Assembly (NCBI GenBank): GCA_017505705.1
Contig: JAFVOS010000005.1
Coordinates: 29,493 to 93,492, forward strand
Reading direction: 5' to 3'
Source of the DNA: Alphaproteobacteria bacterium
Lineage (GTDB): Bacteria; Pseudomonadota; Alphaproteobacteria; Rs-D84
DNA length: 64,000 bases
The first letter of the stretch is position 1. Each line of letters starts with the position of its first letter. The position numbers and the translations under genes were made by a program. Below the pieces are notes generated by a model. The model saw only the letters and a program-made list of their open reading frames with translations. It searched no databases and was not told the DNA's origin. Below are positions 17,319 to 34,778 of this stretch, in pieces.

Positions 17319-17346
17319 TTGACAAATTATGCTTTTGTGCTATATT
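17319..17346 (+). promoter_or_regulatory. sigma70-like promoter (TTGACA-16 nt-TATATT) for the downstream HD-domain gene
   Basis: -35 TTGACA at 17319-17324 and -10 TATATT at 17341-17346, with a 16-nt spacer. The ATG at 17356 follows closely, giving a short leader. Confidence 0.55.
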
Positions 17347-17355
17347 TATATCACT

Positions 17356-18741
17356 ATGACACGCTTTATACTGACAGACGAGATTTTTTATCATGGTACC
17401 CGGGCAAAATTTAATCAATTTAGGCCCCTGTCCCACTTTGGCACCGCCGAAGCGGCAGATACTATACTGGATTCGATTCCAACTGTAAAAAAAGAAAAAC
17501 TCAATGGTATGGACGATTTAAAAAGTACATCTCAACCAACAGCACCGTTGTCAGAAATAGGCGACAGAAAAATTATTCCGGTACGACTGAATCTGCACAA
17601 CACGTATGAAATGCAAGACATTGCCGCATGTCATGATTTGGATACATACAAATCATTTACCGCATATCATATTGCACACGATTTAAAACTGGGGTTTATC
17701 CCACACTTTTTTGACTATATTTTTAACGAACCATTCGAATTGAGTCATGAAGAAATTACCAAGGAACTGGCGTCTGACAACCTGTATGCACCTGCGTCCA
17801 GCAGAGAAAACAGATACCATCTGGCGTTCCAACGAATGATTCAATATTTTGAATCTATTGGATATGACGGATTTCATTATGTAAATCAATATGAAGACCC
17901 AGGCCATATATCATATATCGTATTTCGTCCTGAAAATGTAATTAGACAGGATATGCAGAGCACAGAAACACGCACCCCCGGCACCAGAACATATAAGCCA
18001 GCAGAAATATTGCCTGCACATGATATGTCGCACAATCACAAACGTGCACTGATGTTGGAAGAATCACACCACAATCAACTGTTTACACAAAAAATTAATC
18101 GACACAAAAATCAAACCGACCCAGAACACGCCGCAAAAACAAAAGTATATTACACGAAAGTATTCTATCAGGATATTTTGCCCAAAATAAAAAAGATATC
18201 TAAACAGCCTGAATTTGGATATCATGGTTTAACACACACCGAACAAACTGTTTTATATGGACTGGATTTAGCGATAACATGTGCGTACGACCCGATGCCA
18301 GTGATGTTGGCATGTGCACTGCACGACATACGTCGCACAAACAGTGCACAATCCGATGACCATGCACGCAAGGCCGTACCTTTTGCCCGCAAGTTTTTAT
18401 ATGAAAACTATCCTATGCTTCCATGCGCAACAGTCGAAGAAATTATAAATGCAATTAAAAATCATTCCGATGGTAAAATCGCCAAGGATTTAACAGCGGC
18501 ATGTATGTGGGATGCAGATCGTATACGTTTATCGTGGGATGGTATATATCGACCAGAATATTTTACAACCCTGACAGGTCAATATATAGCCGACCTGCCC
18601 CCACTGGCCAAAGAGGCATATATAAAACGCCAAAATAACATGCTGATTGAAAACAATATCAAGACCCCAGAACAAATTGCGTACGAACAAACAATGAACA
18701 AATTGGCCATTCAGCGTGAATTTGACATAAAATATCGATAA
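17356..18741 (+). CDS. fusion protein: N-terminal domain with a YHGT (diphtheria-toxin/PARP-like ADP-ribosyltransferase-like) motif plus a C-terminal HD-domain phosphohydrolase
   Basis: The C-terminal part carries the HD motif pattern H…H…HD…D (GYHGLTHTEQTV…ACALHDIRR…WDADRI). The N-terminal part begins TRFILTDEIFYHGTRAKFNQF…HFGTAEAA, reminiscent of H-Y-E clade ART catalytic starts. The ORF-track start at 17329 lies inside the promoter, so the start was moved to ATG 17356. Confidence 0.55.
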   Translation: MTRFILTDEIFYHGTRAKFNQFRPLSHFGTAEAADTILDSIPTVKKEKLNGMDDLKSTSQPTAPLSEIGDRKIIPVRLNLHNTYEMQDIAACHDLDTYKSFTAYHIAHDLKLGFIPHFFDYIFNEPFELSHEEITKELASDNLYAPASSRENRYHLAFQRMIQYFESIGYDGFHYVNQYEDPGHISYIVFRPENVIRQDMQSTETRTPGTRTYKPAEILPAHDMSHNHKRALMLEESHHNQLFTQKINRHKNQTDPEHAAKTKVYYTKVFYQDILPKIKKISKQPEFGYHGLTHTEQTVLYGLDLAITCAYDPMPVMLACALHDIRRTNSAQSDDHARKAVPFARKFLYENYPMLPCATVEEIINAIKNHSDGKIAKDLTAACMWDADRIRLSWDGIYRPEYFTTLTGQYIADLPPLAKEAYIKRQNNMLIENNIKTPEQIAYEQTMNKLAIQREFDIKYR

Positions 18742-18796
18742 ACCTAATTTTATTTCTTGCAAAAAACGCAAAGATAGATATAATTCATGTCGCAAT

Positions 18797-18870
18797 TGGG
18801 GTGTCGTCTAATGGTAGGACAAGAGATTTTGGTTCTCTTTATCATGGTTCGAATCCGTGCGCCCCAACCA
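18797..18870 (+). tRNA. trnQ: tRNA-Gln (anticodon TTG)
   Basis: TGGGGTGTCGTCTAATGGTAGGACAAGAGATTTTGGTTCTCTTTATCATGGTTCGAATCCGTGCGCCCCAACCA. Anticodon stem AGAGA/TCTCT with loop TTTTGGT. T-arm CATGG-TTCGAAT-CCGTG. CCA encoded. Followed by a terminator. Confidence 0.85.
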
Positions 18871-18877
18871 ATATTCA

Positions 18878-18900
18878 AACGCACCCTTGTGGTGCGTTTT
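18878..18900 (+). terminator. rho-independent terminator after tRNA-Gln
   Basis: CGCACC-cttgt-GGTGCG hairpin followed by TTTT. Confidence 0.75.
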
Positions 18901-19286
18901 AATATTGGCTTTGTTACGCCCGTTTGATTTGAAACATCGTCCGCCTTTGGCGTGACAGGTTCGACTATGAGTAAGCGAAAACAAGCCTTGCGTAGTTTGA
19001 GCGCTAACGAATGCGGCGCAGTGTCGGCTCAGCTGACCGAGCCAATCCGTGCGCAATTTTTTCAGTTCGAAAGTTAAATTTCCATTTTTTATCTCTTCGA
19101 ATACACTTTCGAACCGTTTATATCATGTAAACAAACATTCGAACCAACAACAATCTTATAAAACTAATGAGAATCTGCTCTAACTGGTCTTTTTATTCAA
19201 AGTGGTTGGGGTGTGCGGGCGAAATAAAATAATATTTACAATTTTGTTTTATTATTTTACACTAATTTCGGTGACAGGAGCAGGAT

Positions 19287-19973
19287 ATGGATGCTATCAA
19301 AAATATAAAAAAAGCATTTTTAAATTTGAAAAATAAAAATCGTTTTTTTGTGTCAGAGGCGGACTTTCAACATTCTTTTGCAATGGAGTTAGAAAAAATT
19401 TTTAATGGTACCGCAACCATTTTACTCGAGTTTCCAATAGAGCAAAATGGTCGTATAATTTATACTGATATTATGCTGGTTTATAAACAATATCTATACC
19501 CAATTGAACTGAAATATAAGACCAAAATTATTCCGTCAGAACAATTATACGGATTTACTAGTTTGCCAATAAAAAAGATATTAAAAAACCACAATGCCGT
19601 AGATATAAACGGCTATAATTTTTGGAAAGATATAAATCGCATAGAACAACTAGTAGAAAACAATCAAGTTGTTTCTGGGGTATGCATTATGATAACTAAC
19701 GATAAGTTTTATTGGACTGGGAATTGGAAAAATAATTCAAAGGGTTATCCTTTTAGAACTGTGCAAGGGAAATACCTTTATGGCAATTTAAAATGGCAAC
19801 ATAACGATTTAAACCATATTCCGAAATGGATTAAACAACATCCTGGTTTTGAAATAAAAAATGATTATGAATTCCTGTGGTGTAACTTTTGCGACACCGG
19901 TGATAAAAACGGTTTGTTCAAATCGTTGTTTATAGAAATCCCACAAAAAACGGATAGTAAACATGTCAAATGA
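19287..19973 (+). CDS. PD-(D/E)xK nuclease-like protein (islet gene 1 of 3)
   Basis: 228 aa with RBS AGGAGCAGG. Motif arrangement E (…SEADFQHSFAMELEKI…), then D (RIIYTDIMLV), then 12 residues to ExK (PIELKYK). This is the canonical restriction-endonuclease-fold catalytic pattern. Confidence 0.55.
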   Translation: MDAIKNIKKAFLNLKNKNRFFVSEADFQHSFAMELEKIFNGTATILLEFPIEQNGRIIYTDIMLVYKQYLYPIELKYKTKIIPSEQLYGFTSLPIKKILKNHNAVDINGYNFWKDINRIEQLVENNQVVSGVCIMITNDKFYWTGNWKNNSKGYPFRTVQGKYLYGNLKWQHNDLNHIPKWIKQHPGFEIKNDYEFLWCNFCDTGDKNGLFKSLFIEIPQKTDSKHVK

Positions 19974-20496
19974 TTATAAAGTATCACGAATTGGCAATGA
20001 AAAATCGCCTAAACTTGTAATTTTGTTATGTAATCCTGGTGGCAACCCAAAGTATTACAAACGCTTGGCAGAATACCCTATGGATAAGGATGGTTTTTAT
20101 AAACCAACTGGGATGAATTTACATATTTATCGTGAATATTGTGAATGGTGGGACAATATTTTGAAAAAGACGGATAAATTCGGGATAAAAGATACTGATA
20201 TTTTAGCGTTGGAATATTATCCATATCACACCAAACGCTCGAACGACAGCAAACATTGGAATTGGGATGATTTTGCACAAAAATCATTATCAAAAAATAA
20301 AGAATTATTATTAAAGCACATTGCCAATGGTGTTCCGGTATTTGGATATTACTATGGTTTTTGGTTAAATGATAAAGATGTTGGCGAACAATTATCAAAA
20401 TTAAATAAAAAACAATTTTGCAAAAGTTGTAATGGACTAGGGCAATCGTTAAAATTAAAAGATTTAGAAACCTGGCTGCAAACAATAACAGATTAA
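19963..20496 (+). CDS. hypothetical protein (islet gene 2 of 3), possible UDG-superfamily-like fold
   Basis: 177 aa. Its start overlaps the gene-1 stop by 11 nt, suggesting translational coupling. Motifs LLCNPGGN and EYYPYHTKRS loosely resemble motif A (G-x-N-P-G) and motif B of uracil-DNA-glycosylase-like enzymes. The match is weak. Confidence 0.4.
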   Translation: MSNDYKVSRIGNEKSPKLVILLCNPGGNPKYYKRLAEYPMDKDGFYKPTGMNLHIYREYCEWWDNILKKTDKFGIKDTDILALEYYPYHTKRSNDSKHWNWDDFAQKSLSKNKELLLKHIANGVPVFGYYYGFWLNDKDVGEQLSKLNKKQFCKSCNGLGQSLKLKDLETWLQTITD

Positions 20497-20498
20497 AA

Positions 20499-21137
20499 AT
20501 GCAAAAGACGAAAAAATCTTTATCAACATATATAATGGATGAAAATCATTTCAAAGATTTTGAATATGAATTTGATTACTGTATTATTCGCAAAGAAAAG
20601 GATTTTGATTATTTAGGTGGGACATTAACAAGTGCTTTGGCTGAATTTATAACTTTTAATGATAATGAAAGTTTAGCATATTTTCTTGCTCTGTTATTAC
20701 AATCAAAAATATTGCTTCCAATTTATATTTGCCCGCCAGGTAAAAATGATGAATATATTATAAAATTACCAGATTGTGAAAATGACAGTTATTTATATAT
20801 GAAAGATTCTAATATTATTCCACAAATAAAAACAGCCGATAATATCAGGTTTTTTAACGCGTTTTTATCTGTTCGTGAAATACATACAGTTGCATATAAT
20901 CATATGTTTTTATATATAGATTTTGAAACGGTATATAAATGGATAAAAAAACATCGCACAGAAATCGATACAATCGCATTTGATCCATTTGCAAAATATG
21001 ACTATGCTTGGTATATCAATGTCGATGACTTTATAAAACAAATTGAATTATTTAAAAAATTTATAAAAAATTATAAAGGCAAAAATATTATTTCAGATTT
21101 ACACACAATATCACTGCAAAAACACATGCGCAAATAG
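20499..21137 (+). CDS. hypothetical protein (islet gene 3 of 3)
   Basis: 212 aa, beginning 2 nt after the gene-2 stop. Acidic and aromatic-rich. No family recognised. Confidence 0.4.
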   Translation: MQKTKKSLSTYIMDENHFKDFEYEFDYCIIRKEKDFDYLGGTLTSALAEFITFNDNESLAYFLALLLQSKILLPIYICPPGKNDEYIIKLPDCENDSYLYMKDSNIIPQIKTADNIRFFNAFLSVREIHTVAYNHMFLYIDFETVYKWIKKHRTEIDTIAFDPFAKYDYAWYINVDDFIKQIELFKKFIKNYKGKNIISDLHTISLQKHMRK

Positions 21138-21322
21138 CCCGAATCTCGCTTGCCGACCCCAACCAGAAATTAAATCGCCCTTGTGGCGGTTTTATTTTTG
21201 GTCAGAGCCACTGTTCGTAATCTGCAACGTATGTTGCCGGTTCCACAATGAGTAGATTTGATAAGTGAAACGCTATCAAATCGTCAGGAATGCCCCGCAG
21301 GCATTTATGCCGAGGGAATTGA

Positions 21323-21338
21323 GTGCGCCCCAACCAAT
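21323..21338 (+). repeat. attR-like direct repeat of the tRNA-Gln 3' end (GTGCGCCCCAACCAAT)
   Basis: Exact 16-mer match to 18857-18872. Confidence 0.6.
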
Positions 21339-21517
21339 GAATTTTTGTTAGAAATCCGGCGCTTTTGTCGGATTTTTTAATGTTTTTTCCTTTACAACAA
21401 CTGATTTATTGAAAAATCTGGAGCCGAAAAGACGTCAAACAAAATTATTGAAATAATTTACGATTTGTGATATAATAACAAGTATGTCAGCGGACGTATA
21501 TGTCGGCTGTTTTTATT

Positions 21518-21546
21518 TGCTCTCGCTTTTTGCGAGAGCTTTTTTT
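21518..21546 (+). terminator. rho-independent terminator-like hairpin immediately upstream of the tail-fibre-like gene
   Basis: GCTCTCGC-ttttt-GCGAGAGC followed by TTTTTTT. It lies inside the ORF-track version of the downstream gene, which is why that start was moved. Confidence 0.6.
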
Positions 21547-21567
21547 GTTATAACAAAAGGAGTTTTA

Positions 21568-23034
21568 ATGCAGAAAGTATCATATATGGGAAACGGTTTA
21601 ACAACCGAATTTACTTTTAATTTTCCCTATTTTGAAAATACAAATATCGTTGTCACTAAAAATGGTACAACAGCAACTGGATACAGCATCGTCGGAACAT
21701 CTGCTGGTTCAAATGCAGATATTCCATATACTGGTGGCAAAGTGGTATTTGAAATTGCGCCAACCAGTTTGGACAATATAACTATCGCACGCAGTTTGCC
21801 CTTGGTGCGTGTTGTAGACTATCAACCAACCGCTAAAATAACACCAATGCTTTTGAATCAAGACGCCAATTATCTGATGGAAGTATTGAAAGATATGCAA
21901 GATAAAATGGACACATTTTATGCAAAATACGAAGATATTGTAAACAAAGACGATATTCAAAATGTGTTATCCAAAATTTCGTATATCAGCCAGCAGCTAA
22001 GCAACGACAATATTATGATGAAGGATGATTTTTATTCACATATCACAAATTGTTTAACCCAAATTCCACAAAACATACACTTTGAATTAAACGATGGCAC
22101 ATTAACATTAAAAGCAGGTTCAAAAATATATGTCCCAAATGGCGTCGGAATATTTGATACAGTTACGATTGCAAATGATATCACCGCAACAAGAACAGAT
22201 AGTCAAAAATGTATGGTGTGGTATAGCCGTTATGAAAACATCATCAGAGTGTTTCCAATAAGCTTATTCTACTCTGGTGATACCGAACCTTCGCAATACT
22301 CATACATGTTCTGGTATGATACATTTAATAATAAATGTAAGATTACAAATAATAGTGGGACAACTTGGGGAGAAGGAATGTCTTTCCCATTGGCTCTTGT
22401 GTCCACAGACGGAACACAAATTTCAGCAATAGACCAAGTGTTTAACGGTTTTGGCTATATAGCACAAACTTTGTTTGTTCTACCCGGGGTTAAGGGATTA
22501 ATTCCAAATGGTAGAAATACTGATGGCACACTAAAAAGCACTTCTTTTTGTGTAGACTCAGTATTAACAACGCTCTTAACCACCGCAACGGCAAATAGCC
22601 CGCTGCTTTTAAAGTCGAATGCTGTTCAAGTTCTAGATTGCTCTTATAACGAAGCAACCAATTATAATTCAAATCCAGCCTATGCGATTGTTGGGGCAGT
22701 TACAACATCTTCCTCCCTAATAACATCTCTTAGACCTAAAGTGAATTTTCAGCTTCTTGACAGGAACGACAAGTTGACAACTATGCCAGATTATACAGCA
22801 GGCGTAAGCGTTTCAACTGGATATGTCACCGAATATCCCTGTTTTGTTCATGTTCGCCCAATTTGGAATGGAAATGTCTCTGATTTAACATCCCCATTTT
22901 CACAATCATTGGCTAAGAACACTTATGATAATTCGACTAAATTTGAAAATTCAGTATGTTTTATCTGTGATATTGGTGAAACAATCAGTTTCACAAATGC
23001 TACTTGTTATGTCTATCCATTAAAAGGAGTTTAA
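21568..23034 (+). CDS. phage tail-fibre-like / receptor-binding-like protein
   Basis: 488 aa from ATG 21568 with RBS AAAGGAG. The N-terminus MQKVSYMGNGLTTEFTFNFPYFENTNIVVTKNG resembles conserved N-terminal domains of phage tail fibre proteins. The rest is Ser/Thr/Asn-rich and beta-rich. It is followed by a small coupled gene. Confidence 0.4.
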   Translation: MQKVSYMGNGLTTEFTFNFPYFENTNIVVTKNGTTATGYSIVGTSAGSNADIPYTGGKVVFEIAPTSLDNITIARSLPLVRVVDYQPTAKITPMLLNQDANYLMEVLKDMQDKMDTFYAKYEDIVNKDDIQNVLSKISYISQQLSNDNIMMKDDFYSHITNCLTQIPQNIHFELNDGTLTLKAGSKIYVPNGVGIFDTVTIANDITATRTDSQKCMVWYSRYENIIRVFPISLFYSGDTEPSQYSYMFWYDTFNNKCKITNNSGTTWGEGMSFPLALVSTDGTQISAIDQVFNGFGYIAQTLFVLPGVKGLIPNGRNTDGTLKSTSFCVDSVLTTLLTTATANSPLLLKSNAVQVLDCSYNEATNYNSNPAYAIVGAVTTSSSLITSLRPKVNFQLLDRNDKLTTMPDYTAGVSVSTGYVTEYPCFVHVRPIWNGNVSDLTSPFSQSLAKNTYDNSTKFENSVCFICDIGETISFTNATCYVYPLKGV

Positions 23035-23035
23035 T

Positions 23036-23341
23036 ATGAAAAAATACGCAAGAATAGTTAACGAAGAAACGAAAGAGTGTTCTGTTGGTTTGGGTAAAAA
23101 CGTCAATTTTTATAAATCTGTTGGGTTGCAAGAAATGGACGTGGAATTGTCTTATGACGGCAGATGGTATGTTTTGGGGTTTGCCCCTGAAAAACCCGAG
23201 TCCACTTATGCAGAAAAACGTTTAAACCAATATCCACACATTGCTGATCAACTAGATATGATTTATTGGGATAAGATGAACGGAACAAATTTATGGCAAG
23301 AAAAAATTAGCGAAATTAAAAGTAAATATCCTAAAAATTAA
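23036..23341 (+). CDS. small protein coupled to the tail-fibre-like gene (possible tail fibre assembly chaperone)
   Basis: 101 aa. Starts 1 nt after the upstream stop. Ends at a bidirectional terminator. Confidence 0.35.
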   Translation: MKKYARIVNEETKECSVGLGKNVNFYKSVGLQEMDVELSYDGRWYVLGFAPEKPESTYAEKRLNQYPHIADQLDMIYWDKMNGTNLWQEKISEIKSKYPKN

Positions 23342-23344
23342 AAA

Positions 23345-23375
23345 AGAAGCCCGTCTTTTACGACGGGCTTTTTCA
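23345..23375. terminator. bidirectional rho-independent terminator
   Basis: AGCCCGTC-tttta-GACGGGCT followed by TTTT. Lies between convergent genes. Confidence 0.75.
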
Positions 23376-23398
23376 TATTGCCTTAGATAATTGCAACA

Positions 23399-24589
23399 TC
23401 AAAGTTTAACATACGACTTCTTTTTGGTATAAAACTTCAACAACCATTTTACAAAATAGTCAGCAACAAGAGAGGCTAACAGACAAATTGCGATACTGAC
23501 GAATAAAACATTCAAATCTCCTTTTAAAAATGGTTTTTGCCATATATACTCATTCATAACAGCAATCATTGGGAAATGCATCAAATAAATTGGATATGAT
23601 AAATCACCTAGCCAAGCACTAAATTTATTATTTAGAAATCTGGAAAAGAAGCCTTCTTCAAACAAGAACGAGACAAAAATAATAATAAACAATATTTCCC
23701 AGAAAATAAATTCGCCAGCAGGTTTATGAAAAGACATATGATATACAAAAAAGAATAACGCTGCTATTTCAAACAAACCAAAAAGAAATTTCTTTTTCTT
23801 TGATACAATTCGTTTTGTTTCAAGTTTACGTTTTAAAAAAGCCCCTATCAATATTCCCAAACTTATTCCAGCTAATCCTTCTATCATACCATTAATCATA
23901 AATGGCATAGAAGCAATTGGTGCGGCCTTATAAAGAGTAGTTGAACCAGTGCCACGCACGATAAAACCGAACAAGGCAATAATTCCACAGACAAAAGCTA
24001 CTTTTTCCCACCTAAAATGACGTAGCGCATAGAAAAAGAATAAAGAGAGAACAAACAGCACACAAACATACCACGATGCAGCATTTTGAGACGTTTCTTG
24101 CATTAATCCCGCAGCATTCGTAACAAAAAACAGATTTAATGTATCAGGATATACCCTATAGGTGCCAATCAGAATATAAGGGATATATGAAAAAGCGAGT
24201 ATTGGCCACAGACGCAAAATACGTCGTTTGGCAAAAGCTTCTAAATCGTATTTCTTGAATCCTTCGCTATGATACAGAAAAAAGCCACTCATTATAAAAA
24301 AACTGAATACAATGAGCAATCCTGAATAACTGCTCATAACTTGCAATGAAGAAAATAGAGTCGACTCTTTATATTTGATCGTCAAAAAGGCCAAAAGATG
24401 TCCATACATAATCATAAGTGCAAACAGAAAACGTATAAAATCTATTTGATAAAAACGTTTTTTATGTTCTACACTCTGCGTATCATCACACGCTGTAGTA
24501 TCTGTTGATGCAGATGTGCTAATACCTGTGCCTGCGCACTCGTTTACATGTGCGGGGGGACAACATGTTGTTATTACTGTTTTTTTCAT
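23399..24589 (-). CDS. acyltransferase family 3 (OafA/OatA-like) integral membrane O-acyltransferase
   Basis: 396 aa, polytopic, with the motif RFYQIDFIRFLFALMIMYGH typical of the Acyl_transf_3 N-terminal region. Precedes the polysaccharide cluster. Confidence 0.7.
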   Translation of the reverse strand: MKKTVITTCCPPAHVNECAGTGISTSASTDTTACDDTQSVEHKKRFYQIDFIRFLFALMIMYGHLLAFLTIKYKESTLFSSLQVMSSYSGLLIVFSFFIMSGFFLYHSEGFKKYDLEAFAKRRILRLWPILAFSYIPYILIGTYRVYPDTLNLFFVTNAAGLMQETSQNAASWYVCVLFVLSLFFFYALRHFRWEKVAFVCGIIALFGFIVRGTGSTTLYKAAPIASMPFMINGMIEGLAGISLGILIGAFLKRKLETKRIVSKKKKFLFGLFEIAALFFFVYHMSFHKPAGEFIFWEILFIIIFVSFLFEEGFFSRFLNNKFSAWLGDLSYPIYLMHFPMIAVMNEYIWQKPFLKGDLNVLFVSIAICLLASLVADYFVKWLLKFYTKKKSYVKL

Positions 24590-24599
24590 GTTTTTCTCC

Positions 24600-25646
24600 T
24601 TATATTGCTTTAATTTTTACGGATTTGAACCCAATACCTAATTTTCTTGTATCATTACCAGCGTTTAAATCTTGGGGTGATACTGGATTTTTTATTATAA
24701 AATGCAACTTCAAAGAAATTCCTTTGATATTGCCTGCTGGAATATGTAATACCGTTTCTGGTTTTTCTTTACCAAAATCAAAATGCCAAGTTGCAATTTT
24801 TTTATCATTTAATAAAACATCAACATCTTGGGTTGGCCATTGTTCAGCAAGATATCCCTCAACATTGAAATCAACAACGACATCAGTATTAAAAGATAGT
24901 GGTAATTCTATAAAGACATCGTTTCCATTGCTCCACCGACCCCAGCCCTCTTTGACGGACAAGCCATAATTTTTGATATTATCGGTTGCAAAGTTATATT
25001 CTACTTCGCCATTGATAAATTCAGAAAAGATGCGTTTAAGAACCGCCCTATTTCCTAAATTGCCAGGCAAATCGTGATATAGCATAAGATAGATATGATC
25101 GTTAATTTTGAACCGACTAACGTCTGCCTGTTCACAATCAGCGCTATCTTGTACCAATAAAAAATCAATATCTTTATTTATAAATCGTGTTGTTAACAAA
25201 GACAAAGCCTGTTTTAATTCGTCTATTGATAAAAAATGCTTAATTCTTGTCACAAACACAAATAATATACGATCCCCAGTTTCAATATTTTCTATTAATC
25301 TTTTTGCACGTCTGGTTTGTTTTTCATAAAAAGAATCGTATTGCTTTTCAACACTTTCACCCCATTCAAAATCATGAAAATAATGCACGCCTGTCTTCGT
25401 ATTAATTACTCCACGATGCTCTTTATTTTCAGACCAGGTTTCTTTTAAATCTTGTAATTCAAACGCACCAGCAAAATCATTACAAATCATTTTTATTTTA
25501 CCAATAAAACCGCAATTGCCACATATATCTGTTTCTGCACCATTCCAATCAAACGGATAGCTTGCTTTACGAATGTCGCAATCACGCAAAGCCCCTGCTG
25601 TTGCACAAAATTCACCAAGCGGAATAACGACATCATATTTTTTCAT
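24600..25646 (-). CDS. DUF1796-like (putative papain-like cysteine peptidase fold) protein with a C-terminal beta-rich domain
   Basis: N-terminus MKKYDVVIPLGEFCATAGALRDCDIRKASYPFDW matches the DUF1796 signature (SLG..C…SYPFDW). Confidence 0.5.
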   Translation of the reverse strand: MKKYDVVIPLGEFCATAGALRDCDIRKASYPFDWNGAETDICGNCGFIGKIKMICNDFAGAFELQDLKETWSENKEHRGVINTKTGVHYFHDFEWGESVEKQYDSFYEKQTRRAKRLIENIETGDRILFVFVTRIKHFLSIDELKQALSLLTTRFINKDIDFLLVQDSADCEQADVSRFKINDHIYLMLYHDLPGNLGNRAVLKRIFSEFINGEVEYNFATDNIKNYGLSVKEGWGRWSNGNDVFIELPLSFNTDVVVDFNVEGYLAEQWPTQDVDVLLNDKKIATWHFDFGKEKPETVLHIPAGNIKGISLKLHFIIKNPVSPQDLNAGNDTRKLGIGFKSVKIKAI

Positions 25647-25672
25647 TTTTTCCCCTATGATTCATATATACA

Positions 25673-26755
25673 CTATTCTTTTGTCTTTTCAATCGCATTT
25701 GCCAACGCATCTAATTTTTTCCAAAATTGATGGTTTGAATCTATAATATCATCAGTATAAACAAAAATTATTCTTTTGGCCGATAAAATATTCTGTATAT
25801 CTGTGTCATTTAATGGGTTGTTCCCATAATGAACAACCATTCCATTATCTGAAAAGCCAGAATTACACAACATATAATTATATTCGTTTGAATAAGAATC
25901 GCCAATTACAATTGTTTTGTCGTGCCATCTGTGCGTTGCTAACATAATCGGCTTATAAAAGCTTTTATCATTACGTTTTGTAAAAAACAAATTTTGTAAA
26001 TTTGTTAAATCTTGCTCTGCAAAATACGGTTTTGGCGAGCTTTCAACACCCAGCCATTTAACGGGTGCCCATTTAAAATATTTTGCAGATTCTTGGAGTG
26101 TCTTGCCTGCACCATAATAATTCCAATGTATTCCACCGATTGGGAATGGCTGATATTCACCTTCTTCACGCAGTTTTTCCATCAAAGGCTGACTGTTATA
26201 TACTGGGATGCCCAAATCCTTGATACCAGATGCCAATTGTTCATGAACAGGACATTTGCCCAGGAAATATTTATAGCGCATTGGCAAATAATCATAATAA
26301 GTCAACGCCTTGCTGGGGGCTAAAACAAAATATATTTTTATTCCATGCCTTTGAGCATAATTCTGTAATTTTTCTAATTTTTCAAAATTGGGGGTTGGCA
26401 AACAATTTTTTGATACAGACTTAAACAAATATTTACCAAATAGATATCTGTGTTTACCTTCTATTATATTATCAAAATAACCTTTGTGTATAAGGCCAAA
26501 ATTAGCCCAATCATAAATTTGATTTTTTGATTTTAACATAAACTTTCGAAATGCAAAATGTGAATTCCACCATCTTTCAAATTCTGGCTGAAACTTACGT
26601 TCTGCAAAAGATTTATCTTGTATACTTGGTAATTCACTGACTGATTCAGAACCGTATATAATCGAAGTATCTTTGACTCCAACCATATATGTCATTGGCA
26701 AAAACAATAAACAAAACAGGGCTAAAACAAAAAATTTTTTATATCCGTTTGCCAT
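25673..26755 (-). CDS. AlgJ/AlgX/DHHW-like partner of MBOAT (polysaccharide O-acetylation accessory protein)
   Basis: 360 aa with an N-terminal membrane anchor. Located immediately downstream of the MBOAT gene, as in AlgI-AlgJ and DltB-DltD pairs. Contains an HRWHD segment. Confidence 0.5.
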   Translation of the reverse strand: MANGYKKFFVLALFCLLFLPMTYMVGVKDTSIIYGSESVSELPSIQDKSFAERKFQPEFERWWNSHFAFRKFMLKSKNQIYDWANFGLIHKGYFDNIIEGKHRYLFGKYLFKSVSKNCLPTPNFEKLEKLQNYAQRHGIKIYFVLAPSKALTYYDYLPMRYKYFLGKCPVHEQLASGIKDLGIPVYNSQPLMEKLREEGEYQPFPIGGIHWNYYGAGKTLQESAKYFKWAPVKWLGVESSPKPYFAEQDLTNLQNLFFTKRNDKSFYKPIMLATHRWHDKTIVIGDSYSNEYNYMLCNSGFSDNGMVVHYGNNPLNDTDIQNILSAKRIIFVYTDDIIDSNHQFWKKLDALANAIEKTKE

Positions 26756-26771
26756 CCTTTAACTCCCCATA

Positions 26772-28205
26772 TTAAAATCTGAAATATATAAACGGTGAAA
26801 ATGTTGATATCATCGCAAACATATAAACAACAACAAATAATACAATTAGCAACAAACTTTCTGTTTTAGAATAGCGAAACTTGTCATATTTTCCGTTAAA
26901 TATAGGATATGACAAAATAATACCAATCATCAAAATCAACAAATTACTGTATGTTAAAAAGTCTGTTGCAGTATAAAAACTATTTGTTGGAGCGTTTGGA
27001 TTGCCAGTAAACATTATTTTTAAATAATCTTTGGCATAAGACAAACTATCTGCACGGAAAAACACCCAACCGACCATAACAACCAACCATGTGTACATGT
27101 TTAATACAATATCACCAAGTTTTACCTTTGGTAAATGCCAATGCTGCACCTTGTCGAGCCAACGACCCCACACACCACGTTCCAAGACAAGCCAGGTCCC
27201 ATGGTAAAGGCCCCAGACAATAAAACTCCAGGTTGCACCATGCCACAAACCACACAGCCCAAAAACAATATACAAATTCAAATATGTACGCCATTTACCT
27301 TTTCTGTTACCACCAAGCGGGATATAAAGATAATCCCTGAACCATGAAGACAACGAAATGTGCCACCTGCGCCAAAAATCTCTGATACTATTGGCACAAT
27401 ATGGATAATTAAAGTTTTCCAGAAATCTAAAATTAAATATGCGCCCTAAGCCAATTGCCATATCTGAATATCCACTGAAATCAAAAAATATTTGCAACGT
27501 ATAGGCTACAATACCAACCCATGCAAACAATGTGGGTATTGAGGCAACCGCACTGCCAAAAATTTTATCTGCAATAAAAGCCATTTGATCTGCAATCAAG
27601 ACTTTTTTAGCCAAACCAATGACAAAACGTCTGGCACCAATAAATATATTATCCAAACTCGTTTTTCTGTTATGCAAATCTTCTTCTATGGTCTGATACC
27701 GAACAATAGGCCCGGCAATTAACTGCGGAAACAATGAAACATATGTAGCCAAACTTGCAAAACTTTTTTGCGCAGGAACCTGTTTTCTGTACACATCAAT
27801 TAAATAAGACATTATCTGGAAAACATAAAAAGAAATACCAATTGGCAATGCAATTTGTGGAATTGTCGCAGGTGCAAAATTTAATGTTTCTAAAACTAAA
27901 TTCATATTACCCAGGAAAAACATCCAATATTTATAAAAGAATAATGCAGATAAATTTAAAACTATACCTGATACCAGCAACCACTTTCTTTTTTTGCCAT
28001 CATTTTTTTCTAATAAAATGCCAATCCCCCACGAGATCGCAATAAGACCAAGCATTACAAGCACAGCCTTTGGTTCCCCCCATGCATAGAAGAACAAACT
28101 GGCTATTAGTAAAACCCAATTGCGCAATCTTTCCTGAGCCAAGAAATACAACCCCAAAGTTGTGGGTAAAAAAAACGCTAAAAACAATGCTGATGAAAAG
28201 ACCAT
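26772..28205 (-). CDS. MBOAT-family membrane-bound O-acyltransferase (AlgI/DltB-like)
   Basis: 477 aa, polytopic. Characteristic MBOAT region including the conserved His in …GLCGLWHGATWSFIVWGLYHG…. Confidence 0.8.
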   Translation of the reverse strand: MVFSSALFLAFFLPTTLGLYFLAQERLRNWVLLIASLFFYAWGEPKAVLVMLGLIAISWGIGILLEKNDGKKRKWLLVSGIVLNLSALFFYKYWMFFLGNMNLVLETLNFAPATIPQIALPIGISFYVFQIMSYLIDVYRKQVPAQKSFASLATYVSLFPQLIAGPIVRYQTIEEDLHNRKTSLDNIFIGARRFVIGLAKKVLIADQMAFIADKIFGSAVASIPTLFAWVGIVAYTLQIFFDFSGYSDMAIGLGRIFNFRFLENFNYPYCANSIRDFWRRWHISLSSWFRDYLYIPLGGNRKGKWRTYLNLYIVFGLCGLWHGATWSFIVWGLYHGTWLVLERGVWGRWLDKVQHWHLPKVKLGDIVLNMYTWLVVMVGWVFFRADSLSYAKDYLKIMFTGNPNAPTNSFYTATDFLTYSNLLILMIGIILSYPIFNGKYDKFRYSKTESLLLIVLFVVVYMFAMISTFSPFIYFRF

Positions 28206-28223
28206 TTTTCCTATATCTTGTTA

Positions 28224-29132
28224 TTAATACTGTTTTACCATTTCTGATAAAATTGCATAAACAGGCTTTGTTTTGAATTCGTTATTAATAAACGCATTGC
28301 ATTTTGTTGGATCGCCAACCAAGCGCATAATTTCATTTTTACGTACAAATTCTGGGTTTACACTGATTTTTGGTGAATATTTAGTAATGTCTTGCAACAT
28401 CCCAAGAATATCATTCCCAGTCGTACCATGCCCTGCACACAAATTCAGCACACGTGGTTCAACATTTGGTTGCAGCGCCAATTTACAGAAGAACTTGGCA
28501 GCAAATTCAATATCAACAAAGTCACGAAATGTGTTCATATTGCCAATTTGCAATTCTGGTTGTTTTGATGCAAACGCCTTGACCAGTTTCGGTATAAGGA
28601 AACTTTCGTTTTGACCAACACCAATCATATTAAACGGACGAACTATCCTTATATCCAGTTTATCCGTATAATTTTTAGAAATATATTCCATAACCATTTT
28701 AGAGAAAGAATAATGATTTGCCGGATTATAGGGAGTTTCTTCGGTATCAAAATCAACCCCAGAATTACCATAAACCCCCGCAGTAGATGTCAAAATAACA
28801 CGTGTTCCGTTATCACACACATCATATAAAGCATCTAATAAATTTTCAGAACCATGAACATTAATGTCATACAATTCACCAACATTGCCATAAACGACAT
28901 TTGCTATTGCGGCCAAATGAATAACCGTACTTGGTTTAAATTCAGAAACCGTTTTCTTCAAATTTTCTTTATCCAGTAAATTTACGGTTCTAATAGATAC
29001 GTTTTCACCAAAAGAAGAATTGATATTACGATCAAAACCCATAATTTTAATATCTTTGTTGGTTAATAATTCTTTGGTTATATGACGACCAACAAATCCA
29101 TTTATTCCTGTAATTAATATACGTGCTGACAT
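28224..29132 (-). CDS. NAD-dependent epimerase/dehydratase family protein, possibly GDP-4-dehydro-6-deoxy-D-mannose reductase (Rmd-like)
   Basis: 302 aa extended SDR. GxxGxxG motif at the N-terminus (ITGINGFVGRH) and YxxxK (YSFSKMV). Adjacent to the gmd cluster. Confidence 0.65.
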   Translation of the reverse strand: MSARILITGINGFVGRHITKELLTNKDIKIMGFDRNINSSFGENVSIRTVNLLDKENLKKTVSEFKPSTVIHLAAIANVVYGNVGELYDINVHGSENLLDALYDVCDNGTRVILTSTAGVYGNSGVDFDTEETPYNPANHYSFSKMVMEYISKNYTDKLDIRIVRPFNMIGVGQNESFLIPKLVKAFASKQPELQIGNMNTFRDFVDIEFAAKFFCKLALQPNVEPRVLNLCAGHGTTGNDILGMLQDITKYSPKISVNPEFVRKNEIMRLVGDPTKCNAFINNEFKTKPVYAILSEMVKQY

Positions 29133-29134
29133 TT

Positions 29135-31618
29135 TTAATTCTCCATAAGTTTGTGTAATACATCATTAATATTTTTGGCACATTCTTCCCATGTGGTGTT
29201 ATGCCATTTCTTTTTAATTGCGGCTTCACGTTGTTTTAACGCCCGGGTATTTGTGTAATAGAACATTATCTTTTCTGCCCATTCAACCGGGTCGTATGGG
29301 TTGGCATAATCTATGATGTCCCCACCAATTTCTAGCAGTGACGGCGTGTCAGATGCCAAACAGAATTTACCATAATTTAAACTTTCTGGTAATGTTAAGG
29401 ACCAACCCTCATAGAAAGATGGCAAACATGTGAAAATACAATTTTGATATAAAATATCTAATTCATCATCTGTCGGCGTTATCAACATAACCTTGTTGCG
29501 TATACGATTGTCAACATCAATAACATGTCGAAAATGTTCTGTTTTCCACCCTGGGTGTCCACATATAACAATTTGTGGCAATTTTTCATATTTTTTAGCG
29601 CTACGCTGTAATTCAAGATATGCTTCGTACAAGACTTCTTGATTTTTGCGTGCCTCAATAGTGCCGACCGACAAAATAAAGTCGCCAGTTATTCCATATT
29701 TTTTAAACACCGATTCTTTTTGTTTTTGTGTATATTTGTGCGAAACAATATCCGAACCCCATTTTAATGCGAATGACTTGCCTGTGGTTAGATTGTTATT
29801 TGTTTGATATTTTTCACCATCTTTCTGTGCAGTCTGCCCACCATAAAATATATAATCAGATAAGGCATACATTTTTTCAAGAAATTCTGGATATGCCTTA
29901 ACCCGTTCTTCTGGATGAGTATGTGGAACAGTTATTGGGGTTAAATCATATATTACGTTACAATACGTAAAACCAGTATTTTTATGATGCTTTATCAAAT
30001 TATCATAAGATGCATTATCATAACCAACCCCCGCTGACAAAACGACATCGCCTTTCTTAAATGGCAAAACGTTTTTAGTCGTATACCCCCGTATAGATTC
30101 TCGTGTTTTTACGACCGCCTTGTCTAAACTTTCTTTGCCTAGCAAACAAGATAGTTGTTTATGAGATAATTCACAATAAACCCCTTGGTTCATCCAAAAA
30201 TATTTTATGTTTTGATTGTATTTGTGTAAATGTCTAGCTAATAACATCTGAGTACGTGGAATTCCAGACAAACCTGCACTATACCACAAAAGGCTGATAT
30301 CATAATAAAGTGTTGGCACATTATTCGTTACCTGTTCTTCATTAAATTCCTTATCACGAACGGATACCAAGCTGTCATACAAACTCTGTGTAGATTCTTT
30401 CCATGAAATGGGTTTAAAATTTGTAGTAACTTTTTGTTCCCATTCGGCAATCTTGTCTGGATTATTCATAAACTTTTCTATAGCATCTGCCCAGTCTTTC
30501 GCATGCTCTGGGTTAATAAAATAAGCACAATCGTTGCCAACTTCCCTTAATGGTGGGGTATCAGACGTCAAACACAATTTGCCATACTGTAATGTCTCAA
30601 GCAAAACAACGCTGTACCCTTCATATAATGATGGCAATACAGCAAACGTACAATTATTATAAAGTGCATTTAATTCTTCATCGCTGCACCCCATGATTTT
30701 TACATAATCTTTGGTTAATAAATTGTTCAACATATTGTCTTGCAATTCATTATTGGCTAATTTTCTGCCCACAATCACAAGTTGCGGAATGTTTTTTGCA
30801 CCACGCTGTTTTAACTGGCAATATGCTTGGTATAAGATTTTATAATTCTTTTTATGATCAAAAGAACCAATTGCTAAAATATATGGTTTCTTTACACCAA
30901 GTGATTCTAAAACTTCATCTGCGTCACGCTTAAAAAGCTGATTTTTCGTATCACCGCCATATTTCAACCAATGACCTTCGGGAATATTTAAATCTTTTTC
31001 TTTGAAATATTTTTCGCTGTCTATTTGTGCAGTATGACCACAATAAACAGCCGCACAACAGTTCGTGGAAATCCAATACAAATATTCGTCAAATAAAGAA
31101 TCCGCAGGAAAATAGAGATGACGTAAATTATCCTTAATCATAACCAAATCATAAATCGTATAAACCAATTTAAAATCTTGTAATCTGCTTCTTATTCGTG
31201 AATAAAACTCCTCTTTTCTGGTTCCAAACCAACCACACGAATATACAACATCGCCATCACTATATGGATATGTTAGATATCTGTTTCTTGAGATATTACG
31301 TGGTTTTAAATAATGACGTTTGAACCGGAATATTTCCCATGCCAATTTTTTACAGATTTTATCATATATGCGATTACAAGTCTGTGACTTGCGTTTTTGA
31401 TATTTTCTGTAATCGTCATTTATATTTTGTGATTTGAATAACCATCTCAATTCAGATTTTTTAACTTCACGAAAGCCATAATCTGTCAAGACGGAAAAAC
31501 GTATGGATGGATCAATTTCATGCAAATTTTTTGCCCGCATCAATTCTGCACGAACAATACCAACCACATTACCCTTGTGTTGTGTAAGACTGTTTGTTAA
31601 ATCCATCCATATTGTCAT
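29135..31618 (-). CDS. tandem two-domain GT4-family glycosyltransferase (WbdA-like architecture)
   Basis: 827 aa with two repeated GT4-like halves (…SDTPPLREVGNDCAYFINP… and …SDTPSLLEIGGDIIDYANP…). Confidence 0.7.
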   Translation of the reverse strand: MTIWMDLTNSLTQHKGNVVGIVRAELMRAKNLHEIDPSIRFSVLTDYGFREVKKSELRWLFKSQNINDDYRKYQKRKSQTCNRIYDKICKKLAWEIFRFKRHYLKPRNISRNRYLTYPYSDGDVVYSCGWFGTRKEEFYSRIRSRLQDFKLVYTIYDLVMIKDNLRHLYFPADSLFDEYLYWISTNCCAAVYCGHTAQIDSEKYFKEKDLNIPEGHWLKYGGDTKNQLFKRDADEVLESLGVKKPYILAIGSFDHKKNYKILYQAYCQLKQRGAKNIPQLVIVGRKLANNELQDNMLNNLLTKDYVKIMGCSDEELNALYNNCTFAVLPSLYEGYSVVLLETLQYGKLCLTSDTPPLREVGNDCAYFINPEHAKDWADAIEKFMNNPDKIAEWEQKVTTNFKPISWKESTQSLYDSLVSVRDKEFNEEQVTNNVPTLYYDISLLWYSAGLSGIPRTQMLLARHLHKYNQNIKYFWMNQGVYCELSHKQLSCLLGKESLDKAVVKTRESIRGYTTKNVLPFKKGDVVLSAGVGYDNASYDNLIKHHKNTGFTYCNVIYDLTPITVPHTHPEERVKAYPEFLEKMYALSDYIFYGGQTAQKDGEKYQTNNNLTTGKSFALKWGSDIVSHKYTQKQKESVFKKYGITGDFILSVGTIEARKNQEVLYEAYLELQRSAKKYEKLPQIVICGHPGWKTEHFRHVIDVDNRIRNKVMLITPTDDELDILYQNCIFTCLPSFYEGWSLTLPESLNYGKFCLASDTPSLLEIGGDIIDYANPYDPVEWAEKIMFYYTNTRALKQREAAIKKKWHNTTWEECAKNINDVLHKLMEN

Positions 31619-31619
31619 A

Positions 31620-32678
31620 TTATTTCACCTTTGCGTTCAATTGTTTCAACATCAATTCCTGTTGTGCCAATTTTAAATCTTCGCAAACCATTTCTTTTGC
31701 CAAAGATTTCCAGTCGTATGTTGGTTTCCACCCCAGTTCTGTTTTGGCTTTGGTTGGATCACCCAATAATAAATCAACTTCGGCAGGGCGGAAGAATTGT
31801 GGATCAACCGCAACAACAGTTTTTCCAGTTGCCTTATCAATTGCGTGTTCTTTAACACCTGTGCCAGACCATTCCAGGTCAAAGCCTGCTTCGGCAAATG
31901 CAACCTTTACAAAATCACGAATTGACGTTGTGACACCTGTTGCCAAAACATAATCAGACGGTTTGTCTGCCTGTAAAATGCGCCACATACCTTCGACATA
32001 ATCTTTGGCATGGCCCCAATCACGCTTAGAGTCCATATTGCCCAGATATAAACAATCTTGCAAACCTTGTTTGATACGTGCGGCCGCTAATGTGATTTTG
32101 CGTGTCACGAAATTATCACCACGACGTGGGCTTTCGTGATTAAATAAAATACCATTGCATGCAAACATATCGTATGATTCACGATAATTTACAGTAATCC
32201 AATACCCATATAATTTTGCAACACCGTACGGTGAACGTGGGTAAAATGGTGTTTTTTCAGATTGAATTGGCTCTTGAATTAAACCGAATAATTCAGAAGT
32301 GGAAGCTTGATAAAAACGAGTTTTTTTATCCAGACCATTTGTATGAATTGCTTCCAACAATCTTAACACACCTATTGCGTCTGACTCTGCGGTAAATTCA
32401 GGACAATCCCAAGAAATTTTAACATGACTTTGTGCAGCCAGATTGTATATTTCGTCTGGTTGTATTTCGCGAACTAATCTATTTAAATTCGTAGAATCTG
32501 TCATATCACCATAATGCAAATGAAGTTTATTTTTAATATGGTCAATACGTCCAGTATTCGGCGATGCAGAACGACGAATAATACCATGGACGCTATAACC
32601 CTTTTCCAACAGTAATTCCGCCAAGTAAGATCCGTCTTGACCTGTGATACCCGTAATCAATGCAACCTTATTTGTCAT
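31620..32678 (-). CDS. gmd: GDP-mannose 4,6-dehydratase
   Basis: 352 aa. N-terminus [39 protein letters not shown] is a typical GMD start. Full-length similarity to Gmd. Confidence 0.9.
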
Positions 32679-32697
32679 GTTTTTTTTTCCTTTTTTT

Positions 32698-33132
32698 TTA
32701 TTTGTTATTCCATTTGTTTAAAATCCAAGATGATGAATTTGCCTTGTTTTCACCACCAACACCAAAAACAATCTCTACTCCACATTCTGCACATGTTGGC
32801 ATTTCCGGTATATTATCTTTTGTTCTGTCACCACCGTTGGCAAAAATCAATTCTGCATCCGGATATTTTTGGCGCACCTTTCTTATGCCATCGCATGCAC
32901 TGTTGTCTGAATCATCAAATTCAATAACATCAATTACACCCTTGATATTTTCCAGTATTGCACGACGCGTGGATATTGAATAAAAATTTTTGCCTTTCTT
33001 GCGACACAACCAATCATCAGAATTAGCCAATACGATAACCCCATCTGAAAACTTTGCAGATTCAACAATCATTGCAATGTGACCTTCGTGAATTGGATCA
33101 AATCCACCTGAAACTATACAATATCTCGCCAT
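32698..33132 (-). CDS. cytidylyltransferase-like nucleotidyltransferase (HxGH motif)
   Basis: 144 aa. [12 protein letters not shown] motif of the cytidylyltransferase/RfaE domain II family. Confidence 0.6.
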
Positions 33133-33512
33133 TATCTATCCTTTCTTGTTGTACGATTATAAATATCTTCTAAACGAATAATATCATTTTCATCCAATAT
33201 ATCGCCCATTTGGATTTCAACAACCTCTGCGATATTATCAGTTAAATTTTCCAATCTGTGCTTAGTTTTTACAGGAATATCAACAGATTGCCCATATTGA
33301 TATTCTCTGACATTATTACCAACAGTGATTGTCGGCGTTCCTTTTACAACAGTCCAATGTTCACTACGATATTCATGCATTTGCAAGGATAGTGACTGAT
33401 GCGGATTAACCGTTATAACCTTTGCGATATATTTGTCACCGACCGCTATACATTTCCATGTTCCCCATGGACGATTTCCTGTTTCGTTTAAATGATATTC
33501 TATATTCGCCAT
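33132..33512 (-). CDS. mannose-6-phosphate isomerase type II / ManC C-terminal-like cupin protein
   Basis: 126 aa. Aligns along its length with the C-terminal cupin of ManC: RPWG…SLQMH.YRSEHW.VV.GT…RLEN…E.QMG…EDDIIRLED.Y.R. Confidence 0.7.
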   Translation of the reverse strand: MANIEYHLNETGNRPWGTWKCIAVGDKYIAKVITVNPHQSLSLQMHEYRSEHWTVVKGTPTITVGNNVREYQYGQSVDIPVKTKHRLENLTDNIAEVVEIQMGDILDENDIIRLEDIYNRTTRKDR

Positions 33513-34769: not shown

Positions 34770-34778
34770 AGCATTACC

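Follow-up and report, generated by a model that had tools for sequence, protein, structure and literature searches.

We analysed a compact three-gene operon (g1, g2 and g3) at positions 19287-21137 of a 64,000-nt stretch of DNA from an Alphaproteobacteria bacterium (assembly GCA_017505705.1, contig JAFVOS010000005.1, positions 29,493 to 93,492 of the forward strand; the whole stretch is called the window below). An earlier reading of the letters alone, here called the original prediction, had proposed the operon as a candidate novel defense or toxin-immunity module. Our analysis suggests that the locus is probably not a new kind of system but a variant of the defence built on Brig-type glycosylases, here accompanied by a nuclease that can be exchanged and by an SseB-like partner. 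We take the host to be a gut alphaproteobacterium, Candidatus Enterousia-like. The three open reading frames (ORFs), the 11-nt overlap between g1 and g2 (19963-19973), the 2-base gap between g2 and g3 (20497-20498) and the g1 motifs that had been described were all found again in the ORF listing and the sequence. The genes taken from the ORF listing are:

19287-19973 (+): g1, 228 aa, predicted PD-(D/E)xK nuclease with a C-terminal β-rich domain
19963-20496 (+): g2, 177 aa, distant Brig1-like protein of the uracil-DNA glycosylase (UDG) superfamily, putative DNA glycosylase for a non-canonical base
20499-21137 (+): g3, 212 aa, putative SseB-domain protein, the constant last gene behind variable nuclease/glycosylase genes in gut Alphaproteobacteria

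These are real genes rather than chance ORFs, because each has 40-73 homologues and, in the pairs of sequences that allow dS to be measured, dN/dS ranges over 0.05-0.46 (0.05-0.38 without one near-identical pair with very few substitutions). Purifying selection acts on all three. The G+C content falls from ~0.41 outside to 0.29-0.32 across the operon. The candidate expression signals, all of them consensus matches only, are:

19235-19263 (+): promoter-like site TTTACA-17-TACACT, from a consensus scan
19276-19280 (+): Shine-Dalgarno sequence AGGAG, read from the sequence
21172-21192 (+): terminator-like hairpin and T-run after g3
18868-18908 (+): hairpin directly 3' of a tRNA gene, with 18-nt arms that are 94% complementary, from a repeat search

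The last hairpin is likely the terminator of the tRNA, separating it from the operon's own promoter, and the promoter-like site, the Shine-Dalgarno sequence and the two hairpins would together frame one transcription unit, g1-g2-g3, as far as consensus matches can indicate. An Rfam scan of the leader and the operon returned the tRNA only.

The tRNA-Gln gene lies upstream of g1 and its 3' end supplies the left member of a pair of repeats. The features of the islet are:

18797-18870 (+): tRNA-Gln (TTG), the integration target (ARAGORN; Rfam tRNA 57.7 bits)
18857-18872 (+): left attachment (att)-like direct repeat at the tRNA 3' end, exact 16 nt GTGCGCCCCAACCAAT, from a repeat search
19066-19236 (+): conserved leader, blastn 76.6% to the related locus L008 and 71.9% to L095
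19203-19211 (-): inverted att core 9-mer CCCCAACCA, where homology to L016 begins
21157-21165 (+): att core copy, 20 nt past the g3 stop, where homology to L014, L015 and L018 ends exactly
21323-21338 (+): right, attR-like copy of the exact 16-nt repeat GTGCGCCCCAACCAAT, from a repeat search

The 64-kb window would be expected to hold 0.7 occurrences of the 9-mer core CCCCAACCA and has four (18862 (+), 19203 (-), 21157 (+) and 21328 (+)), which all lie between 18862 and 21336. Homology to the closest relatives, L014, L015 and L018, stops exactly at 21165. In L016 homology begins at 19202, and the cassette lies ~5 kb away from the tRNA, with other DNA in between. The segment 21157-21336 has its homologous counterpart in L008, in the DNA that immediately follows tRNA-Gln there. 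The 16-nt repeats, the core copies and the homology breaks at them argue for site-specific insertion at the tRNA 3' end, and, read from the sequence, the region is a ~2.5-kb cargo islet integrated there. The tRNA-linked islet of the original prediction is thus upheld by the exact repeats, the low G+C content and the position of the homology breaks. A megablast of 18700-23400 against phage records gave no match, none of the three genes was found in INPHARED, and IMG/VR held neither g2 nor g3 and only nine distant relatives of g1. The three genes are cell-side rather than phage-side in these searches.

The AlphaFold2 model of g2 is confident (predicted local distance difference test (pLDDT) 85.2). 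When it was compared with known structures by Foldseek, the best matches were UDG family 4/5 and UdgX (best E 2.2e-3, probability 0.99), and the predicted structure shows the four-stranded parallel-sheet α/β fold of the UDGs. The NCBIfam equivalog model for Brig1 (NF047634) gives g2 18 bits (E 0.0016), where the curated cutoff is 230 bits. The Brig1 hidden Markov model (HMM) is weakly matched by 38 of the 40 members of the g2 family (best 3.1e-4), and other models are matched by two members at most. We aligned the g2 profile with the Brig1 sequence by hhalign; the sequence came from the supplement of the Brig1 paper, a PDF read by optical character recognition, with one residue corrected from the DNA. 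The alignment spans g2 residues 11-93 (E = 0.0011) and pairs PKLVILLCNPGG with PRLV(V)LGLNPGI, EWWD with AYWV, and DILALEYYPYHT with DILNFELYPWHS. Brig1 Y121 falls on the invariant W62 of g2, and Brig1 E147 on E84, which is at least 90% conserved. In the Brig1 pocket Y121 stacks on the base and E147 provides a hydrogen bond, and the double mutation Y121A/E147A abolishes base excision (PMC11078745). The loop LLCNPGG in g2 has an invariant N24, with P25 and G26 at least 90% conserved, and distant members retain it as LLLNPGY and LALNPGH. It corresponds to motif A of the UDG superfamily, a loop at the end of β1 that reads GINPG in MUG/TDG and GMNPG in SMUG1. The most distant relatives of g2 still keep LNPG and (Y/F)PY(H/S)(S/T). 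The Pfam UDG model (PF03167) matches neither g2 nor ten distant relatives. With a score far short of the Brig1 cutoff and no Pfam UDG match, g2 is here called a distant Brig-like relative, outside the Brig1 equivalog family. The g2 family comprises 30 clusters from a profile search of 1.84 billion representatives, and it is confined to gut Alphaproteobacteria and metagenome-assembled genomes (MAGs) labelled Bacteroidales. We also inspected a g2 fusion (P0161) for its 158-residue N-terminal extension, which proved unrelated to g1 and to all locus ORFs when compared.

The first gene has the residues expected of a PD-(D/E)xK nuclease in place: E24 in SEADFQ, D61 in IYTDIMLV and E74-L-K76 in PIELKYK, with a D61-E74 spacing of 12 residues. 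In an alignment of 57 sequences reaching down to 29% identity, E24, E48, D61, E74, K76, Y77, K78, D115, R118, E120 and N138 are invariant. The AlphaFold2 model is confident (pLDDT 93.5, predicted template modelling score 0.90) and displays an α-β-β-β-α-β core with D61 on β2 and E74-x-K76 on β3, followed by the β-rich C-terminal domain; the signature of the superfamily, an acidic residue on β2, (D/E)xK on β3 and a glutamate on helix 1, is therefore present. The original assignment of g1 is corroborated by the invariance of E24, D61, E74 and K76 and by the modelled core fold, and g1 is supported as a PD-(D/E)xK superfamily nuclease with putative metal-dependent DNA cleavage. No model in Pfam, PHROG, NCBIfam or PADLOC matches it, and searches of the PDB with single sequences and profiles returned nothing significant for g1, g2 or g3. 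Relatives of g1 are encoded in at least 522 GTDB species genomes, spread over Alphaproteobacteria, Bacillota, Chloroflexota, Actinomycetota, Bacteroidota and archaea, and on 13 plasmids, where they are annotated 'hypothetical protein' and in some cases lie beside rep on small Rhodococcus and Prescottella plasmids. Among 149 neighbours of distant g1 homologues, a few are mobile-element genes (DUF6075, DUF3991, Toprim_2, NikA, MobC) and a few are restriction-modification (R-M), GajB or PglX genes, with no recurring methyltransferase or conserved partner. Since no cognate methyltransferase was found among these neighbours, a classical type II R-M reading of g1 was dropped.

Several side observations concern g1. 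In Prescottella equi pRSRe2287 (L112) and a plasmid of Rhodococcus sp. NJ-530 (L114), g1 homologues of 24-27% identity hold a fixed position divergent from rep, and one of them carries the annotation 'putative nuclease'; this suggests that the rep-adjacent branch serves in plasmid maintenance or in competition. In a related MAG (L016:6001-7206), g1 and g2 form one 402-aa ORF owing to the loss of a single base from an A-run (window 19945-19950 region), a fusion that is either natural or a homopolymer assembly error. As it rests on the one-base deletion of a single MAG, we did not use this fusion as Rosetta-stone evidence. A pair of further fusion variants (L099:3358-4731 / L033:4835-5992) comprises a g1 variant of 458 aa, in which the g1 domain follows an N-terminal region containing DUF4116, and a g3 variant of 386 aa with ~170 aa of extra N-terminal region and g1 directly behind it.

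The product of g3 scores 19.0 bits (E 0.0017) with the Pfam SseB N-terminal domain (PF07179), for which the gathering score is 21 bits, and the same domain is matched, over nearly the whole model, by 25 of the 31 g3 family members at E<=0.1 (best 2.7e-7). The SseB domain is related to Tic22-type peptide-binding chaperones (Iyer et al. 2022, PMC9503650). All homologues of g3 that the searches recovered fall within 55-97% identity, and where an organism is named in the record it is an uncultured Alphaproteobacteria MAG. From its domain and position only, g3 might be an accessory or regulatory partner, and this is the least certain of our assignments. The original prediction could not place any of the three genes with confidence in a family that it could name; this no longer applies to g2, a distant Brig1-like member of the UDG superfamily, or to g3, with its probable SseB domain.

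To place the operon among its relatives, we compared gene neighbourhoods. These were collected by seeded searches of MAG and metagenome contigs, so that the frequencies are biased; the ORFs of the loci were called by a simple greedy scheme, and the taxonomic labels of MAG contigs may be wrong. The full trio, whose co-occurrence in other genomes the original prediction had made a point to check, turned up only in near-identical relatives (L014, L015, L016, L018 and L094), and the nuclease slot holds g1, Mrr or nothing. In L008-010, which share the RND-efflux/MarR/tRNA-Gln locus, an Mrr gene (Mrr_N + Mrr_cat) replaces 19237-19980; the leader, kept upstream of Mrr, is 77% identical and g2-g3 is 87% identical. 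At the same locus, the slot is empty in L095, where the leader runs straight into g2-g3, and L120-122 have g2-g3 with an HD protein behind it. We further found T5orf172 + GIY-YIG + g3 on islands bearing an integrase (L011, L117-119), g1-g2 without g3 (L001, L017) and g2 without g1, g3 or an ADP-ribosylglycohydrolase (ARH) gene (L116). The divergence from L014 is mosaic, with a dS of 0.024 for g1, 0.435 for g2 and 0.107 for g3. At the tRNA-Gln locus g2-g3 is a stable pair and the nuclease is an exchangeable front module, and each component also occurs apart from the other two.

These arrangements bear on the second half of the original prediction. A toxin-immunity or toxin-antitoxin module, with g1 as a toxic nuclease restrained by g3 or g2, would suit a compact operon on a mobile islet with the nuclease first and small partners behind it. 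However, g3 remains 55-97% identical behind nucleases of unrelated folds (PD-(D/E)xK g1, Mrr and GIY-YIG), which makes it unfit as a cognate inhibitor; g2 and g3 are both missing from beside most g1 homologues, Pfam identified no toxin or antitoxin family, and PADLOC-DB gave no toxin, antitoxin or defence model at a meaningful E-value. We regard this explanation as very improbable, so that of the two roles first proposed antiphage defence stands as the best reading and toxin-immunity does not. The statement that the operon matches no described defence system agrees with our PADLOC search, which called no system; in PADLOC-DB v2, g1 and g3 had no match and g2 matched only PtuA, at E 0.043. The UDG fold and the nuclease also recall base-excision repair, and a tail-fibre-like gene lies downstream, so the genes could be imagined as a housekeeping glycosylase-nuclease pair or as an inert phage or island remnant. 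The low-GC islet with its att repeats, its patchy presence, which differs between near-identical strains, and the great rarity of the g2 family speak against a housekeeping function, purifying selection argues against decay, and the tail-fibre gene is outside the right repeat; repair or remnant, too, is highly unlikely.

A second hot spot, in gut Alphaproteobacteria and Muribaculaceae-binned contigs, is convergent on a Terminase_6C-DUF5681-ParB/methylase block. Here g1, g2 and g3 shuffle with ARH (PF03747) and small lipoprotein genes in the orders g2-F5-g1-ARH, g1-F5-F7-g3, g1-F10, g2-F33-ARH and g2-ARH-g1. ARH (1.9e-36) lies beside g1 or g2 in 18 related loci, and g2 relatives adjoin an ARH gene in ~10 of 18 loci. 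The neighbours elsewhere are those of defence islands: type I R-M, DUF4238, an OLD-family ATPase, a KAP NTPase, WYL and integrases. Such shuffling raises the question of whether the three genes form a system, as they could be unrelated cassettes in an integration hot spot, co-transcribed for compactness, each acting alone or some having no defence role. The variety of orders (g2-lipoprotein-g1-ARH, g1-lipoprotein-F7-g3, g2-ARH, g2-g3, GIY-YIG-g3), the interspersed lipoproteins F5, F10 and F33, the usual solitude of g1, g2 alone in L116, the mosaic divergence from L014 and the fact that Brig1 works alone all fit independent cargo. Against it, the nuclease gene was swapped precisely while the leader and g2-g3 on either side of it were conserved, each reading frame overlaps or abuts the next, and g2, a rare family of ~30 clusters, is found beside g1 in at least four arrangements. 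We consider independent cargo unlikely.

Two features of this hot spot deserve description. The conserved Terminase_6C - DUF5681 - ParB_N/N6_N4 methylase block (L002-L005, L013, L020-L038, L107-L109) has no portal gene after the terminase. In some contigs type I R-M, DUF4238 and OLD-family ATPase genes border the cargo hot spot, and the whole resembles a packaging module, satellite-like or domesticated, that serves as a defence hot spot. F5, F10 and F33 (L002:5495-5989, L028:6690-7109 and L107:4710-5069) are 120-170 aa long, have lipoprotein signal peptides with lipobox cysteines, have no Pfam match and are interleaved with g2, g1 and ARH. They may be surface or superinfection-exclusion factors. 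We had considered them as chaperone-like relatives of g3, and this was rejected because hhalign detected no relation and because of the lipoprotein signal peptides.

The recurrence of ARH leads to another explanation. ADP-ribosylglycohydrolase (ARG)-centred conflict systems have been predicted to include SseB chaperones and variable restriction endonuclease (REase) effectors (Iyer, Burroughs, Anantharaman and Aravind 2022, PMC9503650). Both components have counterparts here, as g3 is SseB-like and g1 has an REase fold; ARH, WYL and HD genes lie beside g1, g2 or g3 in related loci, and a further likeness is that closely related genomes gain and lose modules around a common core. The operon could thus be a variant of such a system that counters viral ADP-ribosylation, with g3 as the chaperone, g1 as the REase effector and g2 acting on ADP-ribosylated bases or ADP-ribose-linked nucleotides, whose copy in the window has lost ARH. 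The HD-domain gene just upstream of the tRNA in the window would agree with this. However, an HMM scan of the window found no ARG gene, the window has no WYL or Nudix regulator, a UDG-like component is not mentioned in the 2022 paper and lies outside the published description, and the published system is itself a prediction. The related loci fit the ARG-centred description, whereas the window operon lacks an ARG gene, and we judge the variant quite improbable for the window.

We favour the reading that the islet is one transcription unit defending against phages or other invading DNA with non-canonical bases, with g2 as its core, g1 as an exchangeable nuclease and g3 as an accessory, and give it a probability of ~0.55; the individual step that a Brig-like glycosylase directed at a non-canonical base is the core effector of an islet acting against phages or mobile elements we put at 0.55-0.6. 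By its homology and conserved pocket residues, g2 would flip out and excise a modified base, and the resulting abasic sites would block replication. The nuclease g1, predicted to be metal-dependent, occupies a slot before g2 that holds Mrr in a syntenic relative and is empty in others; it may add DNA cleavage, either on foreign DNA alone or at the lesions made by g2, and g3 could serve as a peptide-binding, chaperone-like accessory or regulatory partner. The genes are modular and each may act alone; their physical or functional cooperation is a hypothesis.

Several results weigh against this defence reading. The similarity of g2 to Brig1 is weak, with 18 bits where the cutoff is 230 and an hhalign probability of 20% on a single-sequence template; in addition to the missing Pfam UDG match, motif B of the UDGs (the HPS-type loop) is not recognisable after β4 of g2. 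An hhalign comparison of the g2 profile with E. coli MUG gave no signal. Brig1 alone gave immunity to T4, its operon partners being dispensable (PMC11078745). In most of the 80 loci examined g1 is solitary, with no conserved partner outside gut lineages, and its distant members next to rep on small actinobacterial plasmids hint at other roles. Unrelated lipoprotein genes separate g2 from g1 in the hot spot beside the terminase, so that adjacency there may be mere co-location, and the neighbour sets carry the sampling bias described above. Finally, the ORF listing shows no integrase between the islet repeats; the related g3 islets L011 and L117-119 do encode Phage_integrase.

The likeness to Brig1 extends beyond the alignment. 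Brig1 is monofunctional, without AP (apurinic/apyrimidinic)-lyase activity (PMC11078745). It is the product of gene c in an operon of three genes, with an ADP-ribosyl glycohydrolase as flanking neighbour (Hossain et al., Nature 2024, PMC11078745), and ARH, GIY-YIG nuclease, restriction endonuclease and BREX genes are found around its homologues (PMC11078745). Further UDG-like proteins (Brig2) defend against thymidine-modified phages and occur in A/T-rich mobile contexts (Getz et al., bioRxiv 10.1101/2025.10.29.685425). With Brig1 and Brig2, g2 shares the predicted UDG fold, the LNPG loop after β1 and an E-(Y/L)-Y-P-(Y/W)-H-(T/S) motif after β2; with Brig1 it shares the counterparts of Y121 and E147, the A/T-rich mobile or defence context, the three-gene operon and relatives that are often beside ARH. 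In contrast, g2 is shorter (177 vs ~262 aa), lacks the ~55-residue N-terminal extension of Brig1, is encoded in one operon with an exchangeable nuclease and an SseB-like protein, and has a narrow gut range. The nuclease g1 resembles Mrr and other type IV enzymes in having no cognate methyltransferase and in occupying exactly Mrr's slot in the syntenic relative, but it matches neither Mrr_N nor Mrr_cat and has its own C-terminal β-rich domain.

Whether g1 cooperates with g2 by cleaving the damaged DNA is a separate matter. Cooperation is favoured by the overlapping frames and by the precise swap of g1 and Mrr inside a conserved operon frame, and disfavoured because lipoprotein genes are interspersed, g1 is usually solitary and Brig1 is sufficient by itself; we find it plausible but less likely than not. 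A fuller version would be a two-enzyme 'base-excision restriction', in which the glycosylase makes abasic sites, a lesion-directed g1, interchangeable with Mrr, turns them into breaks, and an SseB-type adaptor couples or regulates the two, and this we hold to be rather doubtful. If true, it would be an undescribed multi-component architecture with a new Brig subfamily, whose new substrate might be a base that is ADP-ribosylated or hypermodified in another way. A glycosylase-fold module can indeed pair with a nuclease, as in the END nucleases, where an inactive EndoIII sensor and a nuclease form one fused protein that targets hypermodified DNA (PMC12191111); here, the two parts are separate polypeptides and the glycosylase-fold part, g2, retains its putative catalytic residues. 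The two-step logic proposed here, base excision followed by strand cleavage, is also that of R.PabI, which differs in its unrelated half-pipe fold, in its sequence-specific action on unmodified DNA and in performing both steps in one protein or with host AP endonucleases, where in the operon they are putatively split between two genes.

Anti-phage DNA glycosylases (Brig1, Brig2 and the Dag enzymes) are recent in bacterial immunity and substrates are known for few of them; the Brig-like defence type was published in 2024 (PMC11078745). The present locus would add a short and very divergent Brig-like subfamily from uncultured gut bacteria, and an operon with an SseB-like gene and a nuclease slot that is exchangeable between an unnamed PD-(D/E)xK family and Mrr. 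It offers a direct test case of whether monofunctional defence glycosylases are naturally teamed with finishing nucleases, and may provide a function-oriented label for a PD-(D/E)xK family that has no Pfam model and spans at least 522 species. Because both show the same recurring neighbours, the loci also link the Brig literature to the predicted ARG-centred conflict systems.

Some observations concern the surroundings of the islet. Between MarR and tRNA-Gln, 17329-18741 (+) encodes a protein of 470 aa. Its C-terminal part is an HD domain (PF01966, 1.2e-6), and its N-terminal region bears a weak likeness to ART-PolyVal (E 0.026) and phrog_21376 (1.1e-6). The gene is absent from the closest relative L014; in L016 the HD part is 39% identical at the same position and the N-terminal part has a 31% identical copy elsewhere. 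This may be a further mobile conflict gene; the list of ARG-centric components includes HD phosphatases (Iyer et al. 2022, PMC9503650). Directly past the right att repeat, 21484-23341 (+) contains an orphan tail-fibre-like gene of 516 aa (phrog_1640, 8e-15, with a weak match to the T7 tail-fibre N-terminus) and a gene of 101 aa (phrog_9114, 8e-12); this region has no other phage genes nearby and no homologue in any fetched locus. Further on, 23399-35888 (-) is a surface-polysaccharide cluster (G+C 0.28-0.37) with Acyl_transf_3, AlgX-like SGNH, MBOAT, epimerase, GDP-mannose 4,6-dehydratase, cytidylyltransferase and Stealth genes, and with two GT4 glycosyltransferases that also match GT4-conflict. 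In relatives, g3 is followed on its own strand, after 2-2.5 kb, by tRNA-Glu(CTC) (L008:9160-9234, L018:5185-5259), whereas the only tRNA-Glu(CTC) of the window is 26 kb away on the opposite strand (47520-47594 (-)). The displaced tRNA implies that a large segment, with the tail-fibre gene and the polysaccharide cluster in it, was inserted or inverted.

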